Assembly: GCA_963828345.1 (NCBI GenBank)
Contig: CAWHEZ010000029.1
Location: 69,582-133,581, forward strand
Length of the DNA: 64,000 nucleotides
Reading direction: 5' to 3'
Origin: an uncultured delta proteobacterium
GTDB lineage: Bacteria; Desulfobacterota; Desulfobacteria; Desulfobacterales; SpSt-501
Below, in pieces: positions 14,720 to 14,881 of the stretch (position 1 is its first letter; each line of letters starts with the position of its first letter). Made by a program: the position numbers and the translations under genes. Under the pieces are notes generated by a model. That model saw only the letters and a program-made list of their open reading frames with translations. It was not told the DNA's origin and searched no databases.

Positions 14720-14881
14720 GTGTTTGGTGTTTGGTGTTCAGTGTTTGGTGTTTAAAGGGCGGTGTTTGGCGGTCGTTGTCTGGTGTTCCGTGCCTGTCAT
14801 GCGGAAAAAGGGGCCGTGTGGGCCGACGCCGGCCCCTGGGCCCATTCTTCACCAAACACTAAACACGAAACACCAAACACC
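14720..14881. repeat. Inverted heptamer-array element (GTGTTTG type)
   Basis: Left arm is (GTGTTTG)n-like, 14720-14753. Right arm is (CACCAAA)n-like, 14850-14881. The arms are about 29/31 complementary. An inner hairpin GGGGCC..GGCCCC lies at 14810-14835. Confidence 0.75.

Follow-up and report, generated by a model that had tools for sequence, protein, structure and literature searches.

In the uncultured delta proteobacterium studied here, a member of the Desulfobacterales, tupA (14887–15714, minus strand), which encodes a periplasmic tungstate/oxyanion-binding protein (Pfam PBP_like_2, E = 1e-47), lies upstream of tupB (14011–14703, minus strand), which encodes an ABC permease (Pfam BPD_transp_1). 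Positions refer to the window, the whole 64,000-nt stretch of DNA that was analyzed, unless a contig is named. The spacer between the two genes (183 nt) holds an ORF-less foldback, in which inverted GTGTTT(N) arrays, with a conserved 6-nt core and one free position per unit, surround a unique interior. The tupA-proximal arm (14850–14882, minus strand; (CACCAAA)x4.7 by TRF) starts 6 nt past the tupA stop codon, and the tupB-proximal arm (14720–14753, minus strand; (GTGTTTG)x4.9 by TRF) ends 16 nt ahead of the ATG of tupB, a gene without a Shine-Dalgarno sequence. Both genes lie on the minus strand, so the arm sequences given in an earlier sequence-only reading of this DNA must be reverse-complemented in mRNA sense, where they become (GGTGTTT)n and (CAAACAC)n. 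In mRNA order, the tupA stop is followed by 6 nt, (GGUGUUU)n, a GC-rich hairpin with U5, degenerate CAAACAC units, (CAAACAC)n, 16 nt and the tupB AUG.

Folding of the 183-nt spacer with RNAfold paired 14720–14750 with 14850–14880 at 29/31 positions, with two mismatches and a 99-nt loop. Together with the TRF arrays, this bears out the arm complementarity of about 29/31 noted by the sequence-only reading. The minimum free energy was −79.9 kcal/mol (z = −6.5) for the sense (minus) strand and −84.9 kcal/mol (z = −5.5) for the plus strand, and none of 200 dinucleotide shuffles of the spacer folded as well. The decaying 7-nt periodicity and the GC hairpin attributed to the interior (14754–14849, minus strand, 96 nt) are both present, the former as degenerate CAAACAC heptamers at 14754–14790 and the latter as a GC-rich hairpin at 14810–14836, followed on the sense strand by UUUUU (14803–14809). 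Judged by its sequence, the loop hairpin with its U5 resembles a terminator; a terminator scan left it uncalled, since the hairpin's loop exceeds 8 nt.

Arrays of this kind are abundant throughout the genome. In the assembly (G000; 4.41 Mb in 51 contigs, 66% G+C), genes were called with our own codon-bias caller, which assigned 81% of the genome to coding sequence and left 19% intergenic, and TRF arrays were counted at ≥2.8 copies, with thresholds that miss short arrays. This gave 424 period-7 and 202 period-8 arrays, of which 376 (89%) and 157 (78%), respectively, lay outside gene calls, a total of 533 intergenic arrays; repeats of period 6, 9, and 12 were chiefly coding. At least eight unit families are present, led by GTGTTTG (91 arrays) and CAGGGTT (85) and followed by GGGTGTTT, CAAGGGTT, AAATCCG/AAATTCG, CTCGATN, CCCGTTNN, and AAGGGGTC. 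The same 6-nt cores occur at about 90–130 separate loci per family, and also in other genomes. Array length peaks at 4 units (copy number 4–5; genome-wide median 4.3). Within units, a core of 5–6 nt is near-invariant and one position is free; in GTGTTT[N], entropy is 1.21 bits at position 7, 0.79 at position 6, and 0–0.4 at positions 1–5, and CGAAAT[N], CTCGAT[N], and C[N]GGGTT follow the same pattern. The order of unit variants inside arrays is random (chi-square p = 0.44).

Many of these arrays are paired. An inverted partner was found within 300 nt for 38–48% of the 533 intergenic arrays, vs. 5–7% in a control that matched arrays against sequence flanking other arrays. The genome-wide family of inverted short-period arrays for which the sequence-only reading had proposed a search is therefore genuine, as judged by this whole-genome scan for arrays and inverted partners. 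The 82 foldbacks confined to a single spacer have a median stem of 27 bp with 11% mismatches and a median loop of 46 nt (roughly 23–124 nt, 10th–90th percentile). Their first arm lies a median of 10 nt past the upstream stop, and their second arm ends a median of 44 nt before the next start. Apparent pairs with loops of >300 nt were considered as cargo elements and rejected, as they mostly just flank ordinary genes; one of them, C45:34081–34595, holds a further repeat plus a small ORF but no cargo gene. An array was present in 383 of 3091 spacers, and occupancy was 18.8% for convergent, 11.9% for co-directional, and 9.1% for divergent spacers (convergent vs. divergent, p = 6e-5). Because convergent occupancy exceeds both others, arrays favor 3′ ends over operon interiors. 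The earlier reading had named a lack of enrichment within operons as counting against it, and genome-wide such enrichment is indeed lacking, the enriched class being convergent and not co-directional spacers. All seven sites that it listed in the window do lie between co-directional genes, which merely reflects the base rate, as 73% of spacers are co-directional.

What the copies share is confined to their arms. The 96-nt tup interior matched only itself in a BLAST search of the whole genome, and the foldback family is defined by arms alone. No target-site duplication was detected, direct repeats outside the 82 stems having the same length distribution as in a shuffled-partner control. Three PF01797 matches to the Y1 transposase (RAYT) family were found in G000, none with a 7–8-nt array within 2.5 kb. 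The sequence-only reading had not recognized the element as a REP/BIME or MITE, and this assessment stands, given the lack of a target-site duplication, of a second copy of the interior, and of a nearby Y1 transposase. Rfam yielded nothing that reached the gathering score anywhere in the window, and ten large foldbacks gave only sub-threshold, miRNA-like hairpin matches. If the elements functioned as sense-strand RNA, stem mismatches should favor G.U over A.C; no such wobble bias was present (41 G.U vs. 45 A.C, p = 0.75). Complementarity between an element's own arms did not exceed that between arms of different elements in four of five families (GTGTTTG, 0.66 vs. 0.65, p = 0.45), and CAGGGTT was the only family with significant element-specific matching (p = 0.0006). 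No signature of selection for RNA pairing was found overall. A preferred orientation of arms to genes, with the G-rich arm by the stop and the C-rich arm by the start, was also considered and rejected as a symmetry artefact: whichever strand is read, an inverted repeat A..A′ gives A..A′, and each family therefore has one fixed arm order.

Comparison with the nearest relative, G013, indicates rapid turnover. Across the entire 588-kb contig G013:C3, 281 spacers could be matched via their flanks. Median spacer identity was 0.76 for array-bearing spacers (n = 42) vs. 0.91 for the others (n = 239; Mann-Whitney p = 3e-5), and 21% of the former vs. 8% of the latter were essentially non-homologous. 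Array-bearing spacers thus change far faster than ordinary spacers. Among 15 orthologous foldback pairs, the loop was kept in eight, unalignable in six, and inverted in one, and unit number differed between orthologous arrays. Outside the window, an AAATCCG foldback at C29:41996–42318 of G000 is replaced at the same G013 junction by a CAGGGTT foldback, between flanks that are 98% identical. Counts of GTGTTTG-array matches vary accordingly, from 276 in G000 and 176 in G013 through 81, 57, 51, and so on in other genomes to 0 in seven genomes of the same genus.

The window offers several examples. Of the six further elements that the sequence-only reading had grouped with the tup element, four are foldbacks and two are not. 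The foldback with the inverted loop is a second GTGTTTG/CAAACAC element (47667–47783, plus strand), which is orthologous in G013; its loop (47701–47745) is identical to that of G013 at 34/42 positions as the reverse complement vs. 25/42 in direct orientation, which suggests that the arms have undergone recombination or template switching. A CAGGGTT/AACCCTG foldback (29187–29275, plus strand) is absent in G013. A CCCGTTG/CAACGGG foldback of the octamer family (46119–46203, plus strand) has a different repeat at its G013 junction, and the inverted-array foldback at 52764 is degenerate. By contrast, the site at 40112–40205 (minus strand) consists of adjacent, non-complementary arrays, GTTCA(A)CG x5 and CAAACAC x4, both absent in G013, and that at 56531 is a solo octamer array; neither forms a foldback. 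At the junction corresponding to 29189–29386, G013 carries unrelated sequence of about 600 nt with an ORF of roughly 150 codons.

The tupA–tupB spacer itself is highly variable among relatives (all compared genomes are MAGs). In 22 relatives it ranges from 12 to 469 nt and contains solo heptamer arrays, a palindromic repeat that we call PE, other repeats, or nothing. In G013, which shares 98% TupA identity and is 95–100% identical at the DNA level in the flanks (about 96% in flanking genes), the spacer is 154 nt long, is made of PE, and is unrelated to that of G000. Homology between the two genomes is lost no more than 2 nt from the tupB ATG and picks up again at the tupA stop codon. Because three further genus members have PE at precisely that position, the G000 state is derived, with the foldback having entered or been rebuilt after the split from G013. 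PE is a second, conventional mobile repeat family, and is called so because it also fills the tupA–tupB spacer in G013 and these three genus members. A copy of about 119 nt is found at 9235–9353 of the window (...CAATCTCTGCGTTGCGC...GCGGCGTAC...GTACGCC...CGCCTTGACCTTGG...), where the orthologous G013 site has a plain hairpin instead. A third repeat family (...GGATCACGGCCTGAGAC.CC.TTTTTC...) occurs at gene junctions where G000 has something else or nothing, namely at the G013 orthologs of 16767–16801 and 46069–46217 and in the tupA–tupB spacer of one relative (L016). In tupB itself, the DNA matches that of G013 at 97.5% identity, but the alignment opens 5 gaps over 1.3 kb, and the translation appears partly out of frame; these gaps may be assembly indels or real frameshifts.

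Some parts of the spacer may be older than others. Solo CAAACAC arrays lie just 5′ of tupB in at least seven genus members, and since they precede tupB in these relatives, the tupB-proximal arm may be older than the tupA-proximal arm. That CAAACAC has persisted before tupB may reflect a function that has been kept, such as providing an unstructured leader to a gene without a Shine-Dalgarno sequence. None of the genus members inspected (L004–L027) has a Shine-Dalgarno sequence before tupB, and many have a CA-rich (CAAACAC)n leader, which could act as an unstructured translation leader for tupB. A strongly structured spacer (z ≤ −3.5) was found in 9/19 relatives, in several unrelated kinds, and an unstructured one in 7/19. 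In a broader set of 63 Desulfobacterales species in which tupB lies at most 400 nt from tupA, 53 spacers lacked both an array and a long stem. Since most relatives' spacers have neither, the foldback is not conserved as a component of tup regulation.

The same architecture also encloses genes. PF05635, the "23S rRNA intervening-sequence protein" (S23p) family, comprises four-helix bundles and has relatives in the Avd proteins of diversity-generating retroelements; it is a large protein family of solved structure for which we know of no established function. The two solid PF05635 genes of G000 both lie within inverted arrays: C13:295371–295640, in a cassette spanning C13:295208–295780 with GTGTTTG/CACCAAA arms and a premature TAG in the gene, and C8:90016–90309, with AAATCCG/CGGATTT arms. 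A genome-wide search returned only these and a weak PF05635-like match to a longer protein at C31:25150–25800 (L003; E = 2e-4), which has AAAGGGACA-type 9–10-nt arrays ahead of it; there is no PF05635 gene in the window or the tup loop. Only about 4 of roughly 3900 G000 genes are bracketed by inverted arrays at all. A 26-mer, GTGTTTGGTGTTTCGTGTTTAGTGTT, is shared only by a tup arm and an arm of the C13 cassette; we make no claim from it, because chance alone predicts roughly one such match and unit variants follow one another in random order. Furthermore, no PF05635 remnant was recognizable in the loops of ORF-less foldbacks, and descent of these from cassettes by internal deletion is therefore unsupported.

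In relatives, the link between PF05635 genes and inverted arrays recurs with many different units. The family is present in 34/40 relatives, and at least 13 of 32 PF05635 loci fetched from the order are bracketed by inverted 7–9-nt arrays; in 17/19 cases, the PF05635 gene points the same way as its upstream neighbor (p = 0.0007). The GTGTTTG-armed cassette occupies one orthologous locus in at least ten genus genomes, after a gene ending in ...TVIALEFK and before a terminator and a convergent gene. Its protein is 55–100% identical among them, and its arms are always of the GTGTTTG or GGGTGTTT type. By these comparisons the cassette is vertically inherited at a single locus in the genus. In another family, a homolog of 41% identity lies at a different locus between ATGTTTG/CAAACAT arms, the two sides having changed in a matched way, and more distant homologs have unrelated arm units. 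In one relative (L195; G027:C194), the cassette arms are long GACAGAA/GATAGAA-like heptamer arrays that resemble the GACAGAT heptamers of the Coxiella burnetii intervening sequence (PMC4990558). Across genomes, at least eight GTGTTTG-array matches were found in 11/13 with the cassette protein clade vs. 6/28 without it (Fisher p = 3e-4, phylogeny uncorrected), and within the genus in 9/10 vs. 4/15 (p = 0.004, likewise uncorrected); the association of cassette and arrays is confounded by phylogeny. Our literature search found no report linking PF05635 to genome-wide heptamer arrays.

Many bacterial genomes are enriched in heptamer arrays, and the cyanobacterial STRR are likewise intergenic heptamer repeats; we know of no accepted explanation for heptamer arrays or for PF05635. 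The sequence-only reading had taken the architecture of the tup element to be undescribed, which proved incorrect, as precedents exist (PMC2700814; PMC4692102; PMC4990558). In Geobacter metallireducens, sets of 3–5 tandem 7–9-nt repeats are paired with sets on the opposite strand, with 24, 21, and 8 pairs reported (Aklujkar et al., 2009; PMC2700814). These sets, classes 1–3, were described as "putative global regulator binding sites," with proteins of the IHF/HU type proposed (PMC2700814). The tup element shares with them the number of tandem units (4.9 and 4.7 in its arms), an inverted partner on the opposite strand at variable distance, and many intergenic copies (there, for example, between proB and proA). 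Like the Geobacter sites, which occur in tens of copies and are absent from G. sulfurreducens, the repeats are lineage-specific. Unlike in G000, the units there have other sequences, and neither a PF05635 link nor an analysis of turnover was noted (PMC2700814).

Intervening sequences in rRNA provide a second precedent. In Coxiella burnetii, the 23S rRNA intervening sequence carries an S23p (PF05635) ORF as well as tandem heptamers and a terminal stem of 28 bp, inside which RNase III cuts (Warrier et al., 2016; PMC4990558); the copy number of its arm heptamers (GACAGAT) varies among strains (PMC4990558). The tup element likewise has a stem of ≥20 bp formed by terminal inverted repeats and tandem heptamers in its arm, and the C13 cassette of G000 carries a PF05635 gene in a loop between GTGTTTG arms. 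The tup element differs in having no ORF, and hence no PF05635 gene in its loop, and in lying in an mRNA spacer rather than in 23S rRNA. In Xanthomonas and Nostoc, GGGAATC heptamers are intergenic, and in Xanthomonas 16% of the repeats fall between convergent genes and 7–8% between divergent genes (Rehm et al., 2015; PMC4692102), while TAACTGA arrays are known from Beggiatoaceae (MacGregor, 2015; PMC4679880). The G000 heptamer arrays and Xanthomonas-type heptamers are alike in being about 89–93% intergenic, lying near the end of the upstream ORF, typically having ≥4 units, and favoring convergent over divergent spacers. Conversely, GTGTTTG, a unit with no GG run and thus without the G-runs required, cannot form the G-quadruplexes open to GGGAATC, and nearly half of the G000 arrays occur in inverted pairs; moreover, the Xanthomonas repeats were reported at conserved locations (PMC4692102), whereas G000 arrays turn over fast. 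REP/BIME elements and MITEs are also small, intergenic, palindromic repeats that follow genes and may stabilize mRNA 3′ ends. The G000 foldbacks are unlike them in lacking whole-element conservation, target-site duplications, and RAYT, and in having arms made of tandem short units instead of a single palindrome; interiors are unshared, and 6 of the 15 orthologous foldbacks have unalignable loops. Overall, the tup element belongs to an already described, poorly understood kind of repeat.

With somewhat more confidence than doubt, we regard the tup element as an unstable DNA repeat of the heptamer-foldback type that settled here recently and is not a conserved regulator; if it affects tup mRNA at all, it probably does so incidentally. 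The arrays, rather than whole elements, would be what spreads, through a unit-specific, DNA-level process that may be tied to PF05635 cassettes and would not be cut-or-copy transposition, and the arms can presumably recombine, as the inverted 47667 loop suggests. GTGTTTG arms around a PF05635 gene reproduce the layout of 23S rRNA intervening sequences that carry an ORF. When co-transcribed with tupA–tupB, the duplex of 29/31 bp is, by analogy, a predicted RNase III-type substrate. It would enclose the terminator-like hairpin and sequester the CA-rich tupB leader, and would probably lower tupB expression or uncouple it from that of tupA as a by-product. As a bolder extension, which is tentative and in our view rather doubtful, PF05635 proteins may be unit-specific partners of heptamer arrays, such that a resident cassette gives rise to, or sustains, arrays of its unit at junctions between genes across the whole genome, with ORF-less foldbacks such as the tup element as the products. 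Against spread driven by cassettes, G000 has 2–3 PF05635 genes for at least eight unit families, with a premature TAG in the GTGTTTG one, and yet has the most arrays. The lack of target-site duplications, of a transposase link, and of PF05635 remnants in loops also counts against the mechanism of spread.

Other explanations account for part of the evidence. REP sequences between malE and malF in E. coli have a ratio-setting role, and the tup foldback could by analogy be a host-selected intercistronic RNA element that stabilizes the tupA 3′ end or attenuates read-through, setting the ratio of binding protein to permease. The very stable fold (z = −6.5), the position 6 nt past the tupA stop, and the terminator-like hairpin with U5 in the loop are as such an element would have them, and 9/19 relatives have some strongly structured element at this junction, although of unrelated kinds. 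Enrichment after stops and in convergent spacers (18.8% vs. 9.1% in divergent ones, p = 6e-5) is also compatible with an RNA function at 3′ ends, and a host-selected 3′-end role is possible for some copies. For the tup element, however, we consider this explanation unlikely: stem mismatches show no strand-specific wobble bias, own-arm complementarity is not in excess in four of five families, the 47667 loop is inverted in G013, and at the tup junction the nearest relative has an unrelated spacer and 53/63 Desulfobacterales species have neither array nor long stem.

The pairing is symmetric in the DNA and shows no bias toward one RNA strand, which would suit arrays that act as paired sites bound by a nucleoid-associated protein or a global regulator, as was proposed for the same architecture in G. 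metallireducens (IHF/HU; PMC2700814). A conserved core of 5–6 nt with one free position is what a sequence-specific reader might require, and copy number peaks at 4–5 units. This analogy seems improbable to us, as at least eight unit families in one genome would call for separate readers or a very promiscuous one, and arrays are depleted in divergent, promoter-containing spacers. They also turn over fast between 96%-identical genomes, with different families at one junction, and range from 0 to 276 matches across the genus. We give similarly little credence to purely local microsatellite dynamics, in which arrays would grow by slippage in place and acquire partners by template switching, with no dispersal or link to genes. 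Unique interiors without target-site duplications, variation in unit number between orthologs, and the random order of unit variants (p = 0.44) agree with such dynamics, but the presence of the same 6-nt cores at about 90–130 loci per family and in other genomes does not. Nor would slippage alone predict that only periods 7 and 8 are affected, that a single position varies next to a conserved core, or that the identical architecture encloses PF05635 genes far above chance.

For annotation, reading the tup element as an unstable heptamer foldback means that such hairpins should not be taken as conserved, riboswitch-like regulators of the operons that flank them. The genus offers a tractable comparison, as the cassette is at a fixed locus, its arm unit is present in hundreds of copies in some species and in none in others, and spacers have been rewritten between genomes that are 96% identical. 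If the proposed partnership of PF05635 proteins with heptamer arrays is true, it would unite 23S rRNA intervening sequences, the Geobacter paired sites, STRR-type repeats, and the PF05635 family as one widespread class of non-transposon elements.
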